Below are positions 4,047-38,603 of a stretch of 64,000 bases of DNA, piece after piece. Made by a program: the position numbers and the translations under genes. Origin of the DNA: a plasmid; the sequence record OW967251.1; one strand, written 5' to 3'. How positions within the stretch are numbered: position 1 is the first letter of the stretch; every line of letters starts with the position of its first letter. The notes under the pieces were generated by a model. That model had not been told where the DNA came from. It was given only the letters and a program-made list of their open reading frames with translations, and did no database searches.

Positions 4047-4469
4047 CTGTCATCGGCGGCGGTACGCTGGCTACCGTGAGCACCTACACACTCAGCTGCC
4101 TGATGAGCGCCGCTCTGGAGTTACCGCGTTGCTGCATTGTGATTGCCAACCTATCCGGCAGCTATGTGGCTCAGACCAAGGCAATTGCCGAAGCAATCTC
4201 TAACCTCCAGCAAGAAGCCAGTCGCCAAGCGAGCACCATCACCCCCGTGCAGTTGGCGGGTACCTGTTCATCCCTGGCGCCTCTCCGCCTTGATGCTGGC
4301 AGATTCAGTCTGGCCTCGCGGTTCGACCTACCGAAATATCGGCGGTTACATTGTCCCCAGAGCTTCAGACCCGGCTGTTACCGGCCACGCCTGTCTGGGT
4401 AGGGAACGAGTGGTGGAACAGTCGGTTCCGTCGGGCGTTAACCTGCGGAACAGAAACCCATGCGACTTT

Positions 4470-23785: not shown

Positions 23786-24283
23786 TTAGCCGTTTCGACG
23801 CGCATAAACGGAGTGGGTGTACGGAATTACAGCTTGAATGGTTTCGGTTGAGACAAGCTCGAATTCTGTTTCGTTGAGCATTGGGAAGAAGGCGTCACCC
23901 TCGAAGGTTTGATGTACCTCAGATAGAAACACGCCGTGGGCGTGAGGTAGTGCCAGAGTGTATATCTCAGCTCCGCCCGCGACGTAGAGTTCATTGCCGA
24001 GTTCGGATGCCAAAGCGATAGCGTGCGACAGCGTTGAAACAACTACGCAGCCAGTGGCGCGGTAGTTAGCTTGGCGTGAGATTACCAATGTGTGACGGTT
24101 CGGTAGAGGCTTGCCGATAGACTCAAAGGTCTTTCGCCCCATGACAACGACTTTTCCCTCAGTGAGTCTGCGAAAAATCTTCTGCTCACCCGGAATTTTC
24201 CAGGGGATATTAGGACCATTGCCAATAACCCGATTGGCTCCCATCGCAGCAACGAGATAAATGCGTACTGATTCCGAGTTCAT
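23786..24283 (-). CDS. dfrA12: trimethoprim-resistant dihydrofolate reductase DfrA12
   Basis: MNSESVRIYLVAAMGANRVIGNGPNIPWKIPGEQKIFRRLTEGKVVVMGRKTFESIGKPLPNRHTLVISRQANYRATGCVVVSTLSHAIALASELGNELYVAGGAEIYTLALPHAHGVFLSEVHQTFEGDAFFPMLNETEFELVSTETIQAVIPYTHSVYARRNG (165 aa). Confidence 0.9.
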   Translation of the reverse strand: MNSESVRIYLVAAMGANRVIGNGPNIPWKIPGEQKIFRRLTEGKVVVMGRKTFESIGKPLPNRHTLVISRQANYRATGCVVVSTLSHAIALASELGNELYVAGGAEIYTLALPHAHGVFLSEVHQTFEGDAFFPMLNETEFELVSTETIQAVIPYTHSVYARRNG

Positions 24284-24427
24284 ATGGCTAACTTTGTTTT
24301 AGGGCGACTGCCCTGCTGCGTAACATCGTTGCTGCTCCATAACATCAAACATCGACCCACGGCGTAACGCGCTTGCTGCTTGGATGCCCGAGGCATAGAC
24401 TGTACAAAAAAACAGTCATAACAAGCC

Positions 24428-30293: not shown

Positions 30294-30953
30294 TTACGCC
30301 CCGCCCTGCCACTCATCGCAGTACTGTTGTAATTCATTAAGCATTCTGCCGACATGGAAGCCATCACAAACGGCATGATGAACCTGAATCGCCAGCGGCA
30401 TCAGCACCTTGTCGCCTTGCGTATAATATTTGCCCATGGTGAAAACGGGGGCGAAGAAGTTGTCCATATTGGCCACGTTTAAATCAAAACTGGTGAAACT
30501 CACCCAGGGATTGGCTGAGACGAAAAACATATTCTCAATAAACCCTTTAGGGAAATAGGCCAGGTTTTCACCGTAACACGCCACATCTTGCGAATATATG
30601 TGTAGAAACTGCCGGAAATCGTCGTGGTATTCACTCCAGAGCGATGAAAACGTTTCAGTTTGCTCATGGAAAACGGTGTAACAAGGGTGAACACTATCCC
30701 ATATCACCAGCTCACCGTCTTTCATTGCCATACGGAATTCCGGATGAGCATTCATCAGGCGGGCAAGAATGTGAATAAAGGCCGGATAAAACTTGTGCTT
30801 ATTTTTCTTTACGGTCTTTAAAAAGGCCGTAATATCCAGCTGAACGGTCTGGTTATAGGTACATTGAGCAACTGACTGAAATGCCTCAAAATGTTCTTTA
30901 CGATGCCATTGGGATATATCAACGGTGGTATATCCAGTGATTTTTTTCTCCAT
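30294..30953 (-). CDS. catA1: chloramphenicol acetyltransferase CatA1 (Tn9 type)
   Basis: [72 protein letters not shown]... 219 aa. Confidence 0.95.
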
Positions 30954-31231
30954 TTTAGCTTCCTTAGCTCCTGAAAATCTCGATAACTCAAAAAATACGC
31001 CCGGTAGTGATCTTATTTCATTATGGTGAAAGTTGGAACCTCTTACGTGCCGATCAACGTCTCATTTTCGCCAAAAGTTGGCCCAGGGCTTCCCGGTATC
31101 AACAGGGACACCAGGATTTATTTATTCTGCGAAGTGATCTTCCGTCACAGGTATTTATTCGGCGCAAAGTGCGTCGGGTGATGCTGCCAACTTACTGATT
31201 TAGTGTATGATGGTGTTTTTGAGGTGCTCCA

Positions 31232-31507
31232 GTGGCTTCTGTTTCTATCAGCTGTCCCTCCTGTTCAGCTACTGACGGGGTGGTGCGTAACGGCAAAAGC
31301 ACCGCCGGACATCAGCGCTATCTCTGCTCTCACTGCCGTAAAACATGGCAACTGCAGTTCACTTACACCGCTTCTCAACCCGGTACGCACCAGAAAATCA
31401 TTGATATGGCCATGAATGGCGTTGGATGCCGGGCAACCGCCCGCATTATGGGCGTTGGCCTCAACACGATTTTCCGCCATTTAAAAAACTCAGGCCGCAG
31501 TCGGTAA
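31232..31507 (+). CDS. insA: IS1 InsA
   Basis: [91 protein letters not shown]. Confidence 0.95.
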
Positions 31508-31929
31508 CCTCGCGCATACAGCCGGGCAGTGACGTCATCGTCTGCGCGGAAATGGACGAACAGTGGGGATACGTCGGGGCTAAATCGCGCCAGCGCTGGC
31601 TGTTTTACGCGTATGACAGGCTCCGGAAGACGGTTGTTGCGCACGTATTCGGTGAACGCACTATGGCGACGCTGGGGCGTCTTATGAGCCTGCTGTCACC
31701 CTTTGACGTGGTGATATGGATGACGGATGGCTGGCCGCTGTATGAATCCCGCCTGAAGGGAAAGCTGCACGTAATCAGCAAGCGATATACGCAGCGAATT
31801 GAGCGGCATAACCTGAATCTGAGGCAGCACCTGGCACGGCTGGGACGGAAGTCGCTGTCGTTCTCAAAATCGGTGGAGCTGCATGACAAAGTCATCGGGC
31901 ATTATCTGAACATAAAACACTATCAATAA
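31426..31929 (+). CDS. insB: IS1 InsB frame
   Basis: 167-aa ORF, canonical InsB. Confidence 0.9.
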
Positions 31930-31930
31930 G

Positions 31931-32161
31931 TTGGAGTCATTACCCCTATACTGGATGACTCCACTTACTCGATGGAAACTCCTTGAGGAGTTGTCCTCTT
32001 GGACGATCTCTTTTGAAAACGATAGTCCCGAATGCCTCTATGAATTCGAGAGACTGCTGAATGATTACGCTTTGCGAGAAAAGCTACAGCATAAAACAGG
32101 GGCGTTGAGAGATTCTATTGTCCATAAAGTGCTTCGCAGCGTAGATGAAAGGCTTTCGTAA
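31931..32161 (+). CDS. hxsD: HxsD-like small protein of the His-Xaa-Ser system (LLNDYxLRE motif), N-terminus replaced or truncated by the IS1 end
   Basis: ...YEFERLLNDYALREKLQHKTGALRD... contains LLNDYALRE. ORF call starts at a TTG inside IS1; first in-frame ATG outside IS1 is at 31955. Stop overlaps hxsB start (TAATG). Confidence 0.55.
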   Translation: MESLPLYWMTPLTRWKLLEELSSWTISFENDSPECLYEFERLLNDYALREKLQHKTGALRDSIVHKVLRSVDERLS

Positions 32162-33549
32162 TGGAATTGATGCCATTCAATTTTGACAGATTGCCTAATG
32201 GACGGGTTTTTATAAGCAACCTCGCAGGCTTTCATCACTTCATTAATGAGCAAGAGCTGCTTGATCTTTCTGATGAGCAAATCAGTGCGGAGCAATCAAA
32301 CCCACTAGAAAGCAAGCTGTTCATAACCAACGAAAGCTCATCAGCTATTGCTCCCTATGCTTTAAGTTCTGCTTTTGCAAAAAGATTGATGAATGAACTG
32401 GCGATCAGGCCAATTTTCATGATTGTGTCCACATTGCGTTGCGACCATACCTGCAAGTATTGTCAGGTCAGTAGAGCTTCAGTGAACGCCTCTGGTTATG
32501 ATCTAGATCCCGATCTCATCCCTCATATCATTTCGACTATCAAAAAACTATCGATACCACCTTACAAGATAGAGATACAGGGTGGAGAGCCACTCTTGCG
32601 GTTCGATTTAATTCAGTCTATCTATGAGCAATGTACTGAAACGTTGGGAAGCTCCGATTTTGAGATGGTGATAGCATCAAGCCTGTCTGTCTTGAATGAG
32701 GATATGCTTCAATGGTCGAGAGGCAGGAACATAACGTTCTCTGTTTCGCTTGATGGTGAGGAGGTTGTTCACAACAGTAATCGAATTCTTGGTCATGGGC
32801 TTGCTTACAGTAGAACAGTATCAGGAGTAGAGGCTATCAAACGGTCTTTAGGCGCTGGTCGCGTTGCAACGGTTACTACAGTTACTAAAGATCTTATCAG
32901 GCATCCTGAATCGATTGTCCAGGCTCACTTGTCTCTTGGCCTCAAGGACATGTTTATCCGACCTGTTAGTCCCTATGGGTTTGCACAAAAAGCATCGTTC
33001 ACATTTTCTATGGAGGAATACTTCAGTTTCTATGCCTCGTTGATAGATGAAATCCTTAAGATGAATAATGAAGGGATAAGGGTTGTGGAACATTCGGCCT
33101 CCATTCATCTGAAAAGGATCTTCAATCCCGGCTTTAGTGGTTATGCGGATTTAAAGTCGCCAAGCGGGGTCGTGCTTAACAGTATTCTTTTCAATTATGA
33201 CGGTCGAGTATATGGTAGCGATGAGAGCCGTATGTTGCAGAAGGTGAACCCTGAAACGGAGTTCAGTGCGGGTGAGGTTAAAACGCTATCATTTTCTAAG
33301 AGTCCTTACTATAACGCAGTGTTGAGTTCATCGTTCAATTTTGCTCTGCCGGGTTGTGATACATGTGCATATCAACCATTTTGCGGTGCAGATCCATGCC
33401 AGAACATAAGTGTACAGGGTGAGCCTGTCGGTGATAGGAGTCGTTCAACGTTTTGTCAGTATCACAAGGGGATGTTCAGGTATCTGATGAACTGCATCTC
33501 AGAAGGTGGTCCGAAGGCTGAGATGCTAAAAGGATGGGCATATGTCTGA
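32161..33549 (+). CDS. hxsB: radical SAM/SPASM-domain maturase, HxsB-like (462 aa)
   Basis: CxxxCxxC motif RCDHTCKYC; Cys-rich C-terminal SPASM-like region (CDTCAYQPFCGADPC...CQYHKG); AT-rich coding sequence. Confidence 0.8.
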   Translation: MELMPFNFDRLPNGRVFISNLAGFHHFINEQELLDLSDEQISAEQSNPLESKLFITNESSSAIAPYALSSAFAKRLMNELAIRPIFMIVSTLRCDHTCKYCQVSRASVNASGYDLDPDLIPHIISTIKKLSIPPYKIEIQGGEPLLRFDLIQSIYEQCTETLGSSDFEMVIASSLSVLNEDMLQWSRGRNITFSVSLDGEEVVHNSNRILGHGLAYSRTVSGVEAIKRSLGAGRVATVTTVTKDLIRHPESIVQAHLSLGLKDMFIRPVSPYGFAQKASFTFSMEEYFSFYASLIDEILKMNNEGIRVVEHSASIHLKRIFNPGFSGYADLKSPSGVVLNSILFNYDGRVYGSDESRMLQKVNPETEFSAGEVKTLSFSKSPYYNAVLSSSFNFALPGCDTCAYQPFCGADPCQNISVQGEPVGDRSRSTFCQYHKGMFRYLMNCISEGGPKAEMLKGWAYV

Positions 33550-34654
33550 GGTTATTAGGAACGATATCTTTCATTTTGCTTCAAAAAAGAATGTGCCCAC
33601 GGGGTTCTATCGGTTATGCAAACAAAAACCAATGAACCCTTTATTCTTTTTACCCAATTTACTGGTAGTTGCTGAAGGCAATAATGATGCCATTCAACCA
33701 TGCTTTGATTTCTCTGTTATTAGCACTGAATTATATGAGTCAATTGAAGATGGAGATATTGGGATAATCAACAATGGCAATATGATACGCGTAATTCTGT
33801 CCCGCAGAGCCAATCATAATACTGTCTTAGTAACGGAACGCTGCAATAACTTGTGTCTGTTTTGTTCGCAGCCACCTAAGAAATCAAATGATGACTGGCT
33901 ACTTACCCAATCAGCTCTTGCTATAGCTTCATTTGGTTTGGATGGAGTTGTTGGGGTCAGCGGTGGAGAACCTTTGCTGTATGGAGATGATTTCCTTCAC
34001 TTCATTGATTTTATCATCGAGAATTCACCAGATACTGCTTTGCATGTTTTAACAAACGGACGCAAATTTTCTGATATCAACTTTACTCAGGAAATGGCAA
34101 AGCGAAGCAAAAAGATAAAAATCACCTTTGGTATCCCGCTCTACTCATCAAGACCACTTGTGCATGATCATCTGGTAGGGAATGATGGCGCATTTAATGA
34201 AACGGTTAAGGGATTAATTAATGCAGGAAACTCAGGGATTAATATCGAACTTAGAGTTATTCCGACACTGGCTAACTATACAGAATTGGATGATATTGTA
34301 GAGTTCGTTGGCCGTGTGTTCTCCAACATCAATCAGATTTCCCTTATGGGGCTGGAATCTATCGGTTGGGCACGAAAGAACTGGTCAACAATCTTCATTG
34401 AGCACAGCAGTTATAGTGAGAAAATAATCTCCGCCATAGACGCTGCGCACAGGTCAGGTATACCTCTAACAATTTTTAATTATCCTTTGTGTCATCTTCC
34501 CGAAAGAGCTTGGGAGCTTGCTGCTCAGTCGATCTCTGATTGGAAAAATTACTATCCTAAAGAATGTGATGAATGCACTCAGAAGTCTTCCTGTACTGGT
34601 TATTTCAGTTCCTCAACAGGCCGTTTTCATCAACCACCGAGACCAATTTTATGA
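33542..34654 (+). CDS. hxsC: second radical SAM enzyme, HxsC-like (370 aa)
   Basis: CxxxCxxC motif ERCNNLCLFC, GGEPLL glycine-rich SAM-binding motif, C-terminal Cys cluster CDECTQKSSC; 8-nt overlap with hxsB and 4-nt overlap with hxsA. Confidence 0.75.
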   Translation: MSEVIRNDIFHFASKKNVPTGFYRLCKQKPMNPLFFLPNLLVVAEGNNDAIQPCFDFSVISTELYESIEDGDIGIINNGNMIRVILSRRANHNTVLVTERCNNLCLFCSQPPKKSNDDWLLTQSALAIASFGLDGVVGVSGGEPLLYGDDFLHFIDFIIENSPDTALHVLTNGRKFSDINFTQEMAKRSKKIKITFGIPLYSSRPLVHDHLVGNDGAFNETVKGLINAGNSGINIELRVIPTLANYTELDDIVEFVGRVFSNINQISLMGLESIGWARKNWSTIFIEHSSYSEKIISAIDAAHRSGIPLTIFNYPLCHLPERAWELAAQSISDWKNYYPKECDECTQKSSCTGYFSSSTGRFHQPPRPIL

Positions 34655-35286
34655 AAAAATTTAATTTTGCTGCTCTACTTCCGGGATTTTTGGCGCTCAA
34701 TAATTCTGTATGGGCAAGTGATTCATCCACCGGAGCAAGTGATTTGCCTGGTATGACCCTTAATGAACATGATTTAGTGATAGCCCCACTTAACACCGAA
34801 GTTCCATTCTACATTGCAGGGCATCGCAGTCATAGCTCCCATCGAAGCCATAGTTCTCACCGATCATCATCAGGTGGCGGGTACTATGGTGGCAGCACTC
34901 CTTATTATCCAAAAACATACAGCTCACCAAGCTCATCTGAGTCTTCAAGTTCAGGAACAAGTTCCTCATCGTCCTCTTCCTCTGTGCGTTCGCTTCGTTC
35001 TAACGACAATAACAACTCTACTACTACGAATTCTGTTGGAACTACAGAAGCTAACCGTGCAAGTAATGGGCTGACTTCTGGTACAGAGAAGCGTAAGCGC
35101 TTAATCATGCGGGTTCAATTCGCTTTGCTGGACAAAGGTTATTACAACGGGAATATTGACGGCATAATGGGGCCTTCCACAAGGCAGTCCATAAAAAATT
35201 ATCGCATTGCGAACGGACTACCAACACCTGCAACTGAAACGCTGGATACTCAATTATTGAACTCGTTAAATATTTTGGCTCGTTAA
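34651..35286 (+). CDS. hxsA: His-Xaa-Ser repeat protein HxsA-like: signal peptide, HRSHSSHRSHSSHRSSS repeat tract, Ser-rich linker, C-terminal peptidoglycan-binding-like domain (211 aa)
   Basis: MKKFNFAALLPGFLALNNSVWA | ...IAGHRSHSSHRSHSSHRSSSGGGYYGG... | SSPSSSESSSSGTSSSSSSSS | ...LLDKGYYNGNIDGIMGPSTRQSIKNYRIANGLPTPATETLDTQLLNSL. Confidence 0.75.
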   Translation: MKKFNFAALLPGFLALNNSVWASDSSTGASDLPGMTLNEHDLVIAPLNTEVPFYIAGHRSHSSHRSHSSHRSSSGGGYYGGSTPYYPKTYSSPSSSESSSSGTSSSSSSSSVRSLRSNDNNNSTTTNSVGTTEANRASNGLTSGTEKRKRLIMRVQFALLDKGYYNGNIDGIMGPSTRQSIKNYRIANGLPTPATETLDTQLLNSLNILAR

Positions 35287-35821
35287 ATCTCAGTGGGGCA
35301 TAAAATGAAAAGTAATAAATTGCATTAGTCGCGTGCACACTATTGGTCACTAAGAGCAAGCAACGTCCGTGAACCACTCCCCATAAATTAAGATATTGCG
35401 ATGTTATCAATGTCCGCTTCTGGCACAAAGCAGACGTTAAGACTTACAGCATCGGGAAACTTCTGGATGCCGCGTCAGCGGCATGGAGGCGCCAGATGAG
35501 GTTACATGTGTCTGTGGCGTCAAATGGCGCCGAAAGCCCGGCGTAGCCGGTTACCGGGCTATAAATTCTGCCACCCTACCCCCTGCCCTGATTAGCCTTA
35601 ACCATCTAACAGCAATGAAGAAGTCAAAGTAATCCCTTTTAACCCCGGTGAGCGGGCTTTACGGCGTTTACGACGTAAAGGGCGTGATTTCCGGGGCCTA
35701 AGCGGCGGCAGCTTGCTGCTGACGCTTAGGGGGATGTTCTTCAGTTATTTGTAAGCGTACAGCGTGAACCGTCTGGTCATAATCTGAAGCATCCGACAAA
35801 GTGGTGTCCACCAAATAAGTA

Positions 35822-36220
35822 GTGGGAACCAAAGTGTCAGATATGCAGAAAAATATGACTCCCGGCAGGCGTAAAGGCTGCCCTAATTATTCTCCTGAGT
35901 TTAAACAGCAACTCGTTGCTGCCTCCTGCGAACCCGGGATATCCATCTCAAAACTGGCGCTTGAAAATGGCATTAATGCCAATCTGCTCTTTAAATGGCG
36001 CCAGCAGTGGCGCGAGGGAAAGCTGCTATTACCTTCCTCTGAGAGTCCTCAGTTACTTCCTGTGACTCTCGATGCCACCGCCGTACAACCAGAACCGCCC
36101 GCTGAGGACTCAGAGCTCAGCATCTGCTGTGAGGTAACGTTCCGGCACGGGACACTCCGCCTCAACGGCACTGTCAGCGAAAAGCTTCTGACTCTGCTGA
36201 TACAGGAACTGAAGCGATGA
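35822..36220 (+). CDS. tnpA: IS66 family accessory protein TnpA (orf1)
   Basis: MQKNMTPGRRKGCPNYSPEFKQQLVAASCEPGISISKLALENGINANLLFKWRQQW... Confidence 0.85.
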   Translation: MGTKVSDMQKNMTPGRRKGCPNYSPEFKQQLVAASCEPGISISKLALENGINANLLFKWRQQWREGKLLLPSSESPQLLPVTLDATAVQPEPPAEDSELSICCEVTFRHGTLRLNGTVSEKLLTLLIQELKR

Positions 36221-36564
36221 TCCCGCTACCAACAGGCATCAAAATCTGGCTGGTTGCCGGTATTACCGATATGAGAAACGGCTTCAACGGGCTGGCTGCA
36301 AAAGTGCAGACGGCGCTGAAAGACGAACCGATGTCCGGCCATGTCTTCATCTTCCGGGGCCGCAGCGGCAGTCAGGTTAAACTTCTGTGGTCCACCGGCG
36401 ACGGGCTGTGCCTGCTGACCAAACGGCTGGAGCGCGGGCGCTTCGCCTGGCCGTCAGCTCGCGATGGCAAAGTGTTCCTGACCCCGGCGCAGCTGGCAAT
36501 GCTGCTGGAAGGCATCGACTGGCGACAGCCGAAGCGGTTGCTGACCTCCCTGACCATGCTGTAG
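36217..36564 (+). CDS. tnpB: IS66 family TnpB (orf2)
   Basis: MIPLPTGIKIWLVAGITDMRNGFNGLAAKVQTALKDEPMSGHVFIFRGRSGSQVKLLWSTGDGLCLLTKRLERGRF... Confidence 0.85.
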   Translation: MIPLPTGIKIWLVAGITDMRNGFNGLAAKVQTALKDEPMSGHVFIFRGRSGSQVKLLWSTGDGLCLLTKRLERGRFAWPSARDGKVFLTPAQLAMLLEGIDWRQPKRLLTSLTML

Positions 36565-36613
36565 GCTTCTTTATCCTGGTTGTCGCAGAATAAGCCTGGT
36601 AAAATGCTGGCTT

Positions 36614-38151
36614 ATGAATGACATCTCTTCTGACGACATCCTTCTGCTGAAACAGCGCCTTGCCGAACAGGAAGCGCTGAACCGTGCCCTGCTGGAAAAG
36701 CTGGCAGACCGGGAGCGCGAAATAGACCATCTGCAGGCGCAGCTGGATAAACTTCGCCGGATGAACTTCGGCAGCCGTTCCGAAAAAGTCTCCCGCCGTA
36801 TCGCACAAATGGAAGCCGATCTGAACCGGCTTCAGAAAGAGAGCGATACGCTGACCGGTCGGGTGGATGACCCGGCAGTACAGCGCACTCTGCGTCAGAC
36901 CCGCACCCGCAAACCGTTCCCCGAATCACTCCCCCGCGATGAAAAACGCCTGCGGCCAGCGGGTTCCTGCTGCCCGGAGTGTGGTGGTGCGCTGAGTTAC
37001 CTGGGTGAGGATGCCGCTGAACAGCTGGAGCTGATGCGCAGCGCCTTCCGGGTGATCCGGACCGTACGGGAAAAACATGCCTGCACAAAATGTGATGCCA
37101 TCGTGCAGGCCCCCGCGCCTTCGCGCCCCATTGAGCGGGGTATCGCCGGACCGGGGCTGATGGCCCGCGTGCTGACCTCAAAGTATGCAGAGCACACACC
37201 GCTGTATCGTCAGTCTGAAATATACGGTCGCCAGGGCGTGGAACTGAGCCGTTCACTGCTGTCGGGCTGGGTGGATGCATGCTGCCGGCTGCTGTCCCCG
37301 CTGGAGGAGGCGCTTCAGGACTATGTCCTGACTGAAGGTAAACTCCATGCCGATGATACCCCGGTCCAGGTGCTGTTGCCGGGCAATAAGAAGACGAAGA
37401 CCGGGCGGTTGTGGACGTATGTTCGTGATGACCGCAACGCCGGGTCAGCGCTGGCACCGGCGGTGTGGTTCGCCTACAGCCCGACAGAAAAGGCATCCAT
37501 CCGCAGACCCATCTTGCGGGGTTCAGCGGTGTGCTACAGGCGGATGCGTACGCCGGGTTCAACGAGCTGTACCGCGATGGCCGGATAACGGAAGCCGCCT
37601 GCTGGGCTCACGCCCGCCGTAAAATCCACGATGTGCACGTTCGCACGCCGTCAGCCCTGACGGAGGAAGCCCTGAAGCGTATCGGCGAACTGTATGCCGT
37701 GGAGGCGGAAATAAGAGGAATGCTGGCGGAACAACGGCTTGCTGAACGTCAGCGGAAAACGAAACCGCTGCTTAGTACCCTGGAAAGCTGGTTGCGTGAA
37801 AAAATGAAAACGCTGTCGCGACACTCGGAGCTGGCAAAGGCGTTCACGTACACCCTGAACCAGTGGCCGGCCCTGACGTACTATGCAGAAAACGGCTGGG
37901 CCGAAGCCGATAATAACATCGCTGAAAATGCGCTGCGGATGGTCAGTCTGGGTCGTAAAAACTGGTTGTTCTTCGGCTCAGACCACGGTGGTGAGCGGGG
38001 AGCGTTGCTGTACAGTCTGATCGGGACGTGCAAACTGAACGGCGTGGATCCAGAAAGCTACCTTCGCCATGTCCTTGACGTCATAGCTGACTGGCCGGTC
38101 AACCGGGTCAGCGAGCTGCTACCCTGGCGCATCACACTGCCAACTGAATAA
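36614..38151 (+). pseudogene. tnpC: IS66 family transposase TnpC, interrupted by a frameshift near 37490
   Basis: ORF 36614..37588 (N-terminal leucine zipper, zinc-finger CPECGG, DDE region) and ORF 37465..38151 (C-terminus) are in different frames; junction ...VWFAYSP|[13 protein letters not shown]. Confidence 0.75.
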
Positions 38152-38191
38152 CACATCCCCGTCAATACGGTTCTCGCTGTACGCTTACAAA

Positions 38192-38603
38192 TCCCTGGAA
38201 AGCTGGCTGCGTGAAAAGATGAAAACCCTGTCGCGACACTCAGAACTGGCGAAAGCGATCGCATACGCCCTGAACCAGTGGCCGGCGCTGACGTACTATG
38301 CAGATGATGGCTGGGCTGAGGCGGACAATAACATCGCTGAAAATGCGCTGCGGATGGTCAGTCTGGGCCGCAAAAACTACCTGTTCTTCGGTTCGGATCA
38401 TGGAGGAGAGCGGGGAGCGCTGCTGTACAACCTGATCGGGACGTGCAAACTGAACGGAGTGGAGCCAGAAAGCTACCTCCGCTATGTCCTTGACGTCATA
38501 GCCGACTGGCCGATAAACCGGGTCGGCGAACTGCTCCCCTGGCGCGTAGCACTGCCGACTGAATAACACATCCCCGTCAATACGGTTCTTGCTGCACGCT
38601 TAC
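38192..38603 (+). mobile_element. tandem second copy of an IS66-family right end (about 410 bp, roughly 85-90% identical to 37778-38188), including a TnpC C-terminal ORF (38219..38566)
   Basis: [47 protein letters not shown]... parallels the 37465..38151 C-terminus; ends ...gcacgcttac at 38603. Confidence 0.8.

Follow-up and report, generated by a model that had tools for sequence, protein, structure and literature searches.

The stretch of plasmid DNA that we analysed (the window, 64,000 nucleotides of sequence record OW967251.1) carries an hxsDBCA defence operon on a plasmid of the pKPN-498 type, and this copy is probably an eroding, hitch-hiking remnant whose defence activity is lost or strongly attenuated. 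Experiments have established HXS as a defence against phages that stops their DNA from entering the cell (Li et al., Nat Commun 2026;17:3910, PMC13128918). HxsA is matured by the other three proteins, HxsB, HxsC and HxsD, into an effector that sits in the periplasm anchored to peptidoglycan, and all four genes are required (PMC13128918). The initial annotation regarded the system as defined only computationally and of unknown function, a view now out of date because both the anti-phage role and a +8 Da change on SHRSS have been demonstrated (PMC13128918). The most likely reading of the window is a known system in a decaying, probably inactive copy.

The published work, on the operon of E. coli strain MEM, provides the reference against which the copy can be read (PMC13128918). 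HxsB and HxsC are cytoplasmic radical-SAM enzymes, and HxsD bound to HxsC in pull-down assays. Maturation of HxsA includes radical-SAM-dependent N-terminal processing and the +8 Da modification, which falls on the SHRSS of the last HxS repeat. The mature protein is exported and anchored to peptidoglycan by its C-terminal peptidoglycan-binding domain, and its basic HxS array delays phage DNA entry. Broad phage restriction needs the signal peptide, the peptidoglycan-binding domain and every HxS repeat. HxsB, HxsC and HxsD are effective at levels below Western blot detection, and HxsD is absent from natural systems ‘in a few cases’.

An hxs cassette of four coupled genes

Judged by its sequence, the cassette is a His-Xaa-Ser (Hxs) radical-SAM cassette, hxsD-hxsB-hxsC-hxsA. 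Four co-oriented open reading frames lie where the initial annotation had placed them (Table 1). They follow this operon order with coupled junctions, and the letters give the overlaps that had been claimed: TAATG for hxsD/hxsB (32157-32163), ATGTCTGA for hxsB/hxsC (33542-33549) and ATGA for hxsC/hxsA (34651-34654). The reported motifs (LLNDYALRE, CDHTCKYC, CNNLCLFC, GGEPLL and HRSHSSHRSHSSHRS) are all found in these frames. In profile searches HxsD, HxsB, HxsC and HxsA each exceed the NCBIfam equivalog cut-offs of TIGR03976-TIGR03979, at E-values (1.9e-19 to 3.4e-167) far beyond chance. All four genes stand in D-B-C-A order in 26 of 29 loci of other species, an order kept by 99.6% of systems (PMC13128918). 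The identification as Hxs is therefore correct on the profile thresholds, on the conservation of the radical-SAM cysteine triads and on the co-occurrence of the four genes.

Table 1. Features in and around the hxs cassette (positions in the window)
Feature	Position	Strand	Basis or remark
catA1, type A-1 chloramphenicol acetyltransferase	30294..30953	-	219-aa ORF; 100% identity annotated in pKPN-498
IS1 (IS1B-like, 768 bp)	31177..31944	+	ends GGTGATGCTGCC...GAGTCATTACC; insA/insB ORFs; IS1B-family annotation
hxsD′ remnant	31945..32161	+	native codons 22-92 (92-aa numbering); TIGR03976 match and alignments to intact copies
hxsB, radical SAM/SPASM maturase, 462 aa	32161..33549	+	TIGR03978, Pfam Radical_SAM match
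hxsC, second radical SAM maturase, 370 aa	33542..34654	+	TIGR03977
hxsA, effector precursor, 211 aa	34651..35286	+	TIGR03979, Pfam PG_binding_1
3′ flank travelling with the hxs module	35287..35424	+	matches E. coli VREC0864 as far as 35424
Unannotated 326 bp, higher GC, unrelated to hxs	35425..35750	.	found mostly on plasmids
IS66-family element, right boundary of the islet	35751..38188	+	inverted repeats, tnpA/tnpB annotation, ORFs

Three of the four genes are full length, and their radical-SAM and auxiliary cysteines do not vary in 25-26 other species. HxsB matches its maturase model along the whole length (556.9 bits, cut-off 370), and its radical-SAM cysteines (C94, C98, C101) and auxiliary-cluster cysteines (C399, C402, C408, C413, C432) are invariant in 26/26 sequences. 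HxsC scores 402.3 bits (cut-off 267.9); its radical-SAM cysteines (C101, C105, C108) and C-terminal cysteines (C317, C342, C345, C351) are invariant in 27/27 sequences, and its accession, WP_000005560.1, is also that of annotated E. coli chromosomal copies. HxsA scores 163.2 bits (cut-off 121.65). Its signal peptide (residues 1-22, MKKFNFAALLPGFLALNNSVWA) is followed by a leader (23-47). The five HxS repeats (HRS HSS HRS HSS HRS) span 58-72 and the SHRSS motif falls at 69-73; beyond them come a Ser-rich linker and, at the C-terminus, a peptidoglycan-binding domain (PG_binding_1, 25.3 bits, cut-off 23). Across genera, residues 1-90 hardly vary, leader and repeats included. The longer, 237-aa frame from 34573 is simply hxsA extended mechanically in the upstream direction.

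A GC content of 0.40-0.46 sets the cassette apart, as had been noted, from the IS66-family element and the resistance DNA, which have 0.55-0.66. The hxs DNA differs by three mismatches in 3480 bp from a chromosomal copy in E. coli (VREC0864) whose hxsD is intact. The proposal that it is horizontally acquired cargo is supported. On the right, hxs-origin DNA ends at 35424 (in other genera homology stops between 35286 and 35368). The 326-bp segment beyond it is colinear with hxsD-intact Klebsiella plasmids and, in the E. coli collection, occurs at 1263 plasmid and 21 chromosomal places. The inverted repeat of the IS66-family element begins at about 35751, 464 bp past the hxsA stop codon and close to the estimated 460 bp; the 31-nt repeats occupy 35742-35772 and 38167-38197, and tnpC is split into two overlapping frames (36614-37588 and 37465-38151).

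Loss of the hxsD 5′ end and probable decay on plasmids

The cassette is not complete. It had been described as apparently so, but the 5′ end of hxsD, a conserved block within it and the native upstream region have been lost to IS1. That IS1, correctly located at the left edge of the cassette, is part of a Tn9-like catA1-IS1 unit, and its insA and insB run in the same direction as hxs. Alignments to native copies begin exactly at 31945, directly after the end of IS1. The native hxsD start lies 56-62 bp farther upstream, which amounts to 19-21 codons replaced by IS1; residues 1-21, the start codon and the ribosome-binding site are gone. The remnant keeps the LYW and LLNDYALRE motifs and still scores 69.8 bits against TIGR03976 (cut-off 50), but the match covers only positions 15-90 of the 90 and HxsD is not full length. 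A 76-aa frame begins at a TTG inside IS1 (31931), and the 79-aa HxsD called by PGAP begins at an ATC inside IS1 (31922).

The lost segment, MAMCERMFEKELYSEWVIRNS, includes a SEWV.RNS block (SEWV(I/L)RNS) whose conservation over 26 species is at least 90%. An AF2 model of full-length HxsD (pLDDT 92.9) places strand β1 at residues 4-9 and helix α1 at 15-25; by this model the truncation takes away β1 and most of α1. Expression signals have gone too. The native DNA upstream of hxsD, in which an intact plasmid has a promoter-like site 70 bp from the gene, is replaced by IS1. We found no Shine-Dalgarno sequence at a usable distance from TTG 31931 or ATG 31955, and hxsB has a weak AAGG of its own 8 nt upstream of its ATG. 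A promoter scan, a weak test that performed no better here or on the intact plasmid than on shuffled sequence, found no promoter-like site between IS1 and hxsD; the sole site on the left side is that of IS1 itself, in the left inverted repeat (31184-31211). No target-site duplication flanks IS1 (left agtgcgtcg, right cctatactg), which fits IS1-mediated deletion or recombination rather than simple insertion.

HxsB carries a second, lineage-specific change. A T at 32428 gives P90S, four residues before the CxxxCxxC motif, at a position where 25/25 other species, as well as loci L003, L004 and L036, have proline. The IS1 junction is also present in plasmid AR_362 unnamed1, which retains P90, so the substitution arose after the truncation of hxsD. 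As a single substitution, P90S is anecdotal evidence for relaxed selection.

The carrier is a multiresistance plasmid of Klebsiella pneumoniae with IncFIB(K)/IncFII(K) replicon types. Except for 206 extra bases, the window matches K. pneumoniae plasmid pKPN-498 at 100% identity, and hxsDBCA is already annotated there by NCBI PGAP. Plasmid carriage, which the initial annotation had thought rarely discussed in a resistance context, is not unusual: the same DNA is on 352 PLSDB plasmids (345 from Klebsiella), RefSeq annotates hxsD/B/C/A, and HXS is present in 27% of Klebsiella genomes (PMC13128918). Among the 303 PLSDB plasmids with at least 80% of the cassette, the 5′ end of hxsD is intact in 210, which answers whether the gene survives on other replicons, and the remaining 93 have the exact IS1 junction of the window. 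Other plasmids have lost more. In pMBR_F_DHA-1 the junction of the same catA1-IS1 unit lies within hxsB, and in pC17KP0020-1 hxsA alone is left beside it; in pKLP1_4 an IS26 junction lies within hxsB. At the 5′ end of hxsD the IS1 and IS26 junctions are 1 bp apart. The window copy thus appears to be one step among nested IS1 and IS26 deletions that erode the cassette from the resistance-region side.

Relationship to known systems

The closest experimentally characterized relative is the HXS operon of E. coli MEM (PMC13128918), a likeness that rests on families, gene order and residue numbering. The two agree in their four families, in gene order and in having junctions that overlap. All catalytic cysteines, and every residue mutated in the MEM operon, recur in the window under the same numbers (HxsB C98/C101/C399/C402, HxsC C105/C108/C342/C345, HxsD Y23/D61/R65). 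In HxsA the numbering also agrees for the signal peptide (1-22), for the 48-78 peptide and for SHRSS. Both HxsA proteins have five HxS repeats and the peptidoglycan-binding domain, though that of the window has 211 residues and the published one 214. Unlike the MEM operon, the window lacks hxsD codons 1-21 and the native promoter region and has P90S in HxsB. Moreover, a conjugative IncF plasmid of Klebsiella carries the window copy, and the E. coli copies in the collection are all chromosomal (155/155).

Among plasmids, the pKPN3-like p1_020049 (NZ_CP028784.1) has the same backbone and the same right flank, the 326-bp segment and IS66-family element among it, with two mismatches in 12480 bp. 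Its hxsD is complete (273 bp) and keeps the DNA upstream, with a mer operon before it; catA1-IS1 takes that place in the window, which also has P90S. The TIGRFAM/NCBIfam His-Xaa-Ser system (TIGR03976-TIGR03979; Haft & Basu 2011) is matched in all four models, with HxsD reaching only 15-90 of 90. PADLOC-DB v2.0.0 contains no HXS model.

More distant are the radical SAM/SPASM peptide maturases of solved structure CteB (5wgg) and SkfB (6efn) and the His-directed cyclophane synthases HaaB and HtkB. Like the Hxs enzymes they have the radical-SAM core, CxxxCxxC and C-terminal auxiliary-cluster cysteines, and they act on a short repeated motif of a ribosomally made substrate. Sequence similarity is remote (E = 1e-4 to 8e-5, in the radical-SAM core). 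The Hxs substrate differs in being a 211-aa protein that needs two radical-SAM enzymes and HxsD, and the reported +8 Da change does not match a simple -2 Da cross-link. HxsB falls outside the cyclophane/thioether RiPP maturase families with which it was compared: its scores for PapB (72.8 bits, cut-off 340), YhhB (40.8/445), GrrM/OscB (30.7/310), AmcB (30.0/425) and the SCIFF maturase (29.4/425) are all far below the curated cut-offs. Prokaryotic viperin (pVip) was also rejected, on matches of 21-27 bits that are confined to part of the radical-SAM core and not full length. T4 Imm and Sp, superinfection-exclusion proteins compared with HXS in the discussion of PMC13128918, are phage-encoded and narrow in spectrum, involve no radical-SAM maturation and have no sequence relationship to HXS.

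Activity of the plasmid copy and its consequences

We infer the inactivity of the window copy from its sequence. The IS1 of the catA1-IS1 unit has replaced the upstream region and first 21 codons of hxsD; a sub-lineage has then gained P90S at an invariant proline beside the radical-SAM cluster motif of HxsB; and the remnant would now hitch-hike on an epidemic plasmid, probably with no defence or a strongly attenuated one.

The cassette might instead still be a working HXS defence, which we regard as a less likely but serious contender. HxsD′ would be made from TTG 31931 (MESLP-LYWM...) or ATC 31922 by read-through from the IS1 promoter, the 21 N-terminal residues of HxsD would be dispensable and the epidemic plasmid would shield its host from phage DNA entry. 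Several observations speak against inactivity. The hxsD′ frame is open from either codon within IS1, and both experimentally tested HxsD motifs, LYW and LLNDYxLRE with D61 and R65, are kept; hxsB, hxsC and hxsA are full length, with every cysteine ligand in place, and hxsB has its weak AAGG; and the promoter-like site of IS1 is directed towards hxs. Even weak read-through might suffice because HxsB, HxsC and HxsD act at such low abundance, and a few natural systems do without HxsD (PMC13128918). That 93 plasmids keep this exact truncated form also seems to favour function, but these copies are near-identical and clonal, and their intactness is therefore uninformative about selection in either direction. 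Weighing against a working cassette is the nature of what is missing: a block at least 90% conserved, β1 and most of α1, from a small and confidently modelled domain. The putative start codons are non-canonical and without a Shine-Dalgarno sequence, and nothing is left of the native upstream region. IS1 exerts strong polarity, and InsA represses its promoter. P90S alters an invariant residue beside the radical-SAM motif, and the deeper deletions by the same IS1 in sister plasmids imply no strong selection for keeping the cassette. We consider it rather improbable that the IS1-fused HxsD′ supports HxsA maturation, or else that the repeated loss of the hxsD 5′ end to insertion sequences was selected, with HXS switched off on conjugative plasmids.

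A quite different product was reportedly imagined when the family was defined from the co-occurrence of radical-SAM enzymes and target peptides, namely a peptide or protein that is modified, secreted and serves some purpose other than defence. Such a product, for example a metal-binding or bacteriocin-like RiPP, would be in keeping with a His-rich repeat that could bind metals, with the cyclophane synthases HaaB and HtkB, known radical-SAM enzymes that act on His-X-X motifs, and with the secondary HxsB matches to PapB and, at 30-41 bits, to GrrM/OscB, YhhB and AmcB. We think this very improbable. Those matches are too weak for family membership, HxsA is a protein with a peptidoglycan-anchoring domain rather than a short exported peptide, and the cassette is found in defence-island or prophage-cargo settings. 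Furthermore, the phage-restriction experiments are direct, and restriction depends on the signal peptide, the peptidoglycan-binding domain and the HxS repeats (PMC13128918).

The window gives no new biology of the HXS mechanism; the system had been a puzzle for fifteen years until the answer came in 2026. The practical use of the window is cautionary. About a third of the plasmid-borne Klebsiella hxs cassettes in PLSDB (93/303) are truncated by IS1, and further plasmids are deleted more deeply. The cassette nonetheless seems complete in annotation because PGAP names a 79-aa ‘HxsD’ that starts inside IS1. Since truncated copies are annotated, surveys that count HxsA (27% of Klebsiella genomes) and future defence-system callers may overestimate the number of functional systems. 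Were HxsD′ active after all, epidemic KPC-era K. pneumoniae plasmids would carry a working block to phage DNA entry, and HxsD could do without its N-terminus. Naturally truncated copies that have or lack P90S are a ready allelic series on the parts of HxsD and HxsB that are needed, and the truncated copies bear on the prediction of phage susceptibility and on phage therapy of epidemic carbapenem-resistant K. pneumoniae lineages.

Identity and function of the HXS cassette

The cassette hxsD-hxsB-hxsC-hxsA is a His-Xaa-Ser (HXS) radical-SAM system, and this identification is essentially certain. ORF calling places four genes in one orientation, and the overlaps and motifs quoted in the initial annotation are all found in the sequence. 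All four products score above the curated NCBIfam equivalog cut-offs (see table). Radical_SAM domains are present in both HxsB and HxsC, and PG_binding_1 forms the HxsA C-terminus (Pfam). The cassette is indeed AT-rich, with a GC content of 0.40–0.46 against 0.55–0.66 in the flanking resistance DNA and IS66-family element. The true start of hxsA is at 34651, giving a 211-aa product; a 237-aa ORF from 34573 was rejected as a mere upstream extension of this gene.

Comparison with homologues bears out the identification. Using an HxsC query we retrieved 29 loci from other species, and 26 of them contain the complete set of genes in D-B-C-A order; the remaining three are contig ends or a remote match. 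In the homologue alignments the cysteines C94/C98/C101 and C399/C402/C408/C413/C432 of HxsB are invariant, as are C101/C105/C108 and C317/C342/C345/C351 of HxsC. Because synteny and cysteines are both conserved, the identification stands.

HxsA residues 1–90, which comprise the signal peptide, the leader and the HxS core, hardly vary among the genera of a cross-genus set (L007–L034) in which HxsC identity is only about 80% and DNA identity only about 72%. This pattern points to an unusually strong constraint acting on the HxsA N-terminus.

Other searches added little. Rfam gave no match within the cassette; sequence searches of the PDB returned only remote radical-SAM matches (CteB, SkfB), with none for HxsA. 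PADLOC-DB (2023) gave only weak pVip-like matches over the radical-SAM core, and is uninformative here because it has no HXS model.

The earlier view that no function is known for the system no longer holds (Nat Commun 2026;17:3910, PMC13128918). Working with a cloned hxsDBCA operon of E. coli strain MEM, Li et al. reported restriction of 110 of 113 coliphages, involving neither abortive infection nor a block to adsorption (PMC13128918). In T7, escape arises through mutations in the ejectosome proteins gp15 and gp16, and the phage DNA enters the cell with a delay. Defence needs all four genes, and within HxsA the signal peptide (residues 1–22), the PG-binding domain and each of the HxS repeats are required. 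HxsA is processed at its N-terminus and gains 8 Da on SHRSS, and both changes need HxsB, HxsC and HxsD. HxsC binds HxsD, and defence is abolished by HxsD Y23A and by D61A/R65A (PMC13128918). All residue numbers used by Li et al. coincide with those of the window proteins. The strain MEM operon was not found among the matches listed for the E. coli collection, so the equivalence of the two systems rests on this matching numbering.

Features of the window and their supporting observations
Feature	Position	Observation
Group II intron domains D1-D4-7	4277-4425 (-)	122.7 bits (Rfam)
AAC_AAD_leader / attI	24260-24338 (-)	71.2 bits (Rfam)
catA1-IS1 interval	30971-31176	206 bp
IS1	31177-31944	ends read from sequence
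hxs-origin DNA	31945-35424	
hxs cassette	31945-35286	four ORFs
HxsD		TIGR03976, 69.8 bits, cut-off 50 (NCBIfam)
HxsB		TIGR03978, 556.9 bits, cut-off 370 (NCBIfam)
HxsC		TIGR03977, 402.3 bits, cut-off 267.9 (NCBIfam)
HxsA		TIGR03979, 163.2 bits, cut-off 121.65 (NCBIfam)
hxsD/hxsB junction		overlap TAATG
hxsB/hxsC junction		overlap ATGTCTGA
hxsC/hxsA junction		overlap ATGA
HxsA residues 1-90	34651-34920	signal peptide, leader, HxS core
Unannotated segment	35425-35750	326 bp, not hxs-related; between hxs module and IS66-family element
IS66-family element	35751-38188	31-nt inverted repeats
IS66-family tnpC	36614-38151	two overlapping ORFs, 36614-37588 and 37465-38151

Replacement of the hxsD 5′ end by IS1

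The initial annotation considered the cassette apparently complete. It is not: IS1 has replaced the 5′ end of hxsD and its upstream region. No native copy aligns to the window before position 31945. Native HxsD reads MAMCERMFEKELYSEWVIRNS-LYWMTPL..., and the window reads IS1 up to the LYW motif; HxsD residues 1–21 (92-aa numbering of Li et al.) are therefore gone, and with them the start codon, the ribosome-binding site and the entire upstream region. Among the lost residues is the block SEWV(I/L)RNS, whose conservation over 26 species is at least 90% and extends to the about 50%-identical systems of Vibrio and Rheinheimera. Consistently, the TIGR03976 match spans only profile positions 15–90 of 90. 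In an AlphaFold2 model of a full-length HxsD homologue (pLDDT 92.9) the order is β1 (4–9), α1 (15–25), β2, β3 and a long α2, so the truncation removes β1, one strand out of three, together with most of α1.

A simple insertion of IS1 was considered and rejected, since we found no target-site duplication around the element and the DNA upstream of it is the catA1 unit, not hxs.

The truncated gene (hxsD′) has only three possible starts. Two of them lie inside IS1, a TTG (31931) and the ATC (31922) chosen by PGAP; a third, the ATG at 31955, would remove the LYW motif. No Shine-Dalgarno sequence was found at a usable distance from any of the three. A scan found no promoter-like site between IS1 and hxsD; on an hxsD-intact plasmid such a site precedes hxsD by about 70 bp. 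Promoter and terminator scans carry little weight, though, because their site counts were no higher than in shuffled sequence.

Distribution, junctions and neighbouring DNA

The window is 100% identical to the conjugative IncFIB/IncFII plasmid pKPN-498 of K. pneumoniae KPNIH1, bar 206 extra bases. These form the catA1-IS1 interval, a Tn9-type cat upstream spacer missing from the pKPN-498 record. Across PLSDB, hxs DNA occurs on 352 plasmids (345 from Klebsiella, 290 conjugative), 303 of which carry at least 80% of it. Among those 303 the hxsD 5′ region is intact in 210, and the window's exact IS1/hxsD junction is present in 93. In the intact form a mer operon lies upstream of hxsD.

Other plasmids have lost more. 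The same catA1-IS1 unit abuts inside hxsB on pMBR_F_DHA-1 and leaves only hxsA on pC17KP0020-1; on pKLP1_4 it is IS26 that abuts inside hxsB. The breakpoints lie progressively deeper, the remnants being hxsC and hxsA or hxsA only, and together these junctions form a series of nested deletions with one end fixed in the resistance region.

An independent hxsD truncation occurs in K. pneumoniae GCA_004402035.1 (L036, 1–180), where the IS26 end …TTTGCAACAGTGCC abuts native GCCTATACTGG. This junction lies 1 bp upstream of the IS1 junction in the window (compared at window 31940–31950) and yields a different fused HxsD N-terminus (protein P0002). Derivation of this variant from the window type was rejected, as the native G directly before CCTATAC is kept. 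That IS1 and IS26 ends fall 1 bp apart in the same hxsD codon could reflect a hot spot, selection or coincidence.

In E. coli, 155 of 5426 complete genomes contain hxs DNA, every copy is chromosomal, and their identities form tiers between about 75% and 99.9%. The nearest, in isolate VREC0864 (3 mismatches in 3480 bp), lies on an island adjoining a tRNA-Thr gene, with antirestriction and toxin-antitoxin genes. In native chromosomal contexts (L001, L003) the neighbours of hxs are of a defence or mobile type: DUF6119 and TIGR04141 families, a three-component ABC system, antirestriction, toxin-antitoxin and the tRNA-Thr island. IS2, IS3 or ISVsa5 interrupts several of the E. coli copies. A P88-like prophage of S. 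Typhi is reported to carry hxsDBCA as cargo (PMC10686908).

Beyond the hxs DNA, the unannotated segment occurs at 1263 plasmid places versus 21 chromosomal ones in the E. coli collection. The IS66-family tnpC is split; a frameshift has probably left this copy of the element inactive. Carrying the pKPN-498 annotation over by offset puts the group II intron match between ISKpn26 and a gene for a LysR-family regulator; the PLSDB table annotates no intron-encoded protein there. The attI match sits at a class 1 integron (intI1, dfrA12, aadA2, qacEdelta1, sul1), as is expected for a resistance region.

Is this copy active?

Judged from its sequence, the window copy is probably inactive or strongly attenuated. 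The main rival is that the IS1-fused HxsD′, expressed by read-through from IS1, still suffices for function. It retains LYW and LLNDYxLRE, and the HXS enzymes act even when very scarce (PMC13128918); we regard this as the less likely reading.

HxsB of the window differs at one position, P90S (T at 32428), from the intact plasmids, E. coli VREC0864 and L036. Position 90 is proline in 25 of 25 other species, inside the invariant block PIFMIVPTLRCDHTCKYCQV and four residues ahead of the first cluster cysteine (CxxxCxxC motif). The substitution is present in the window/pKPN-498 type and absent from p1_020049, the hxsD-intact plasmid examined. It arose later than the truncation, because AR_362 unnamed1 has the IS1 junction and retains P90. 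As a single substitution it is anecdotal, but it agrees with the decay evidence.

The HXS system is already known, and the window-type copy is already annotated: RefSeq lists hxsD, hxsB, hxsC and hxsA on pKPN-498. What the present analysis adds is small: many hxs copies on Klebsiella plasmids are truncated, yet annotated as complete.
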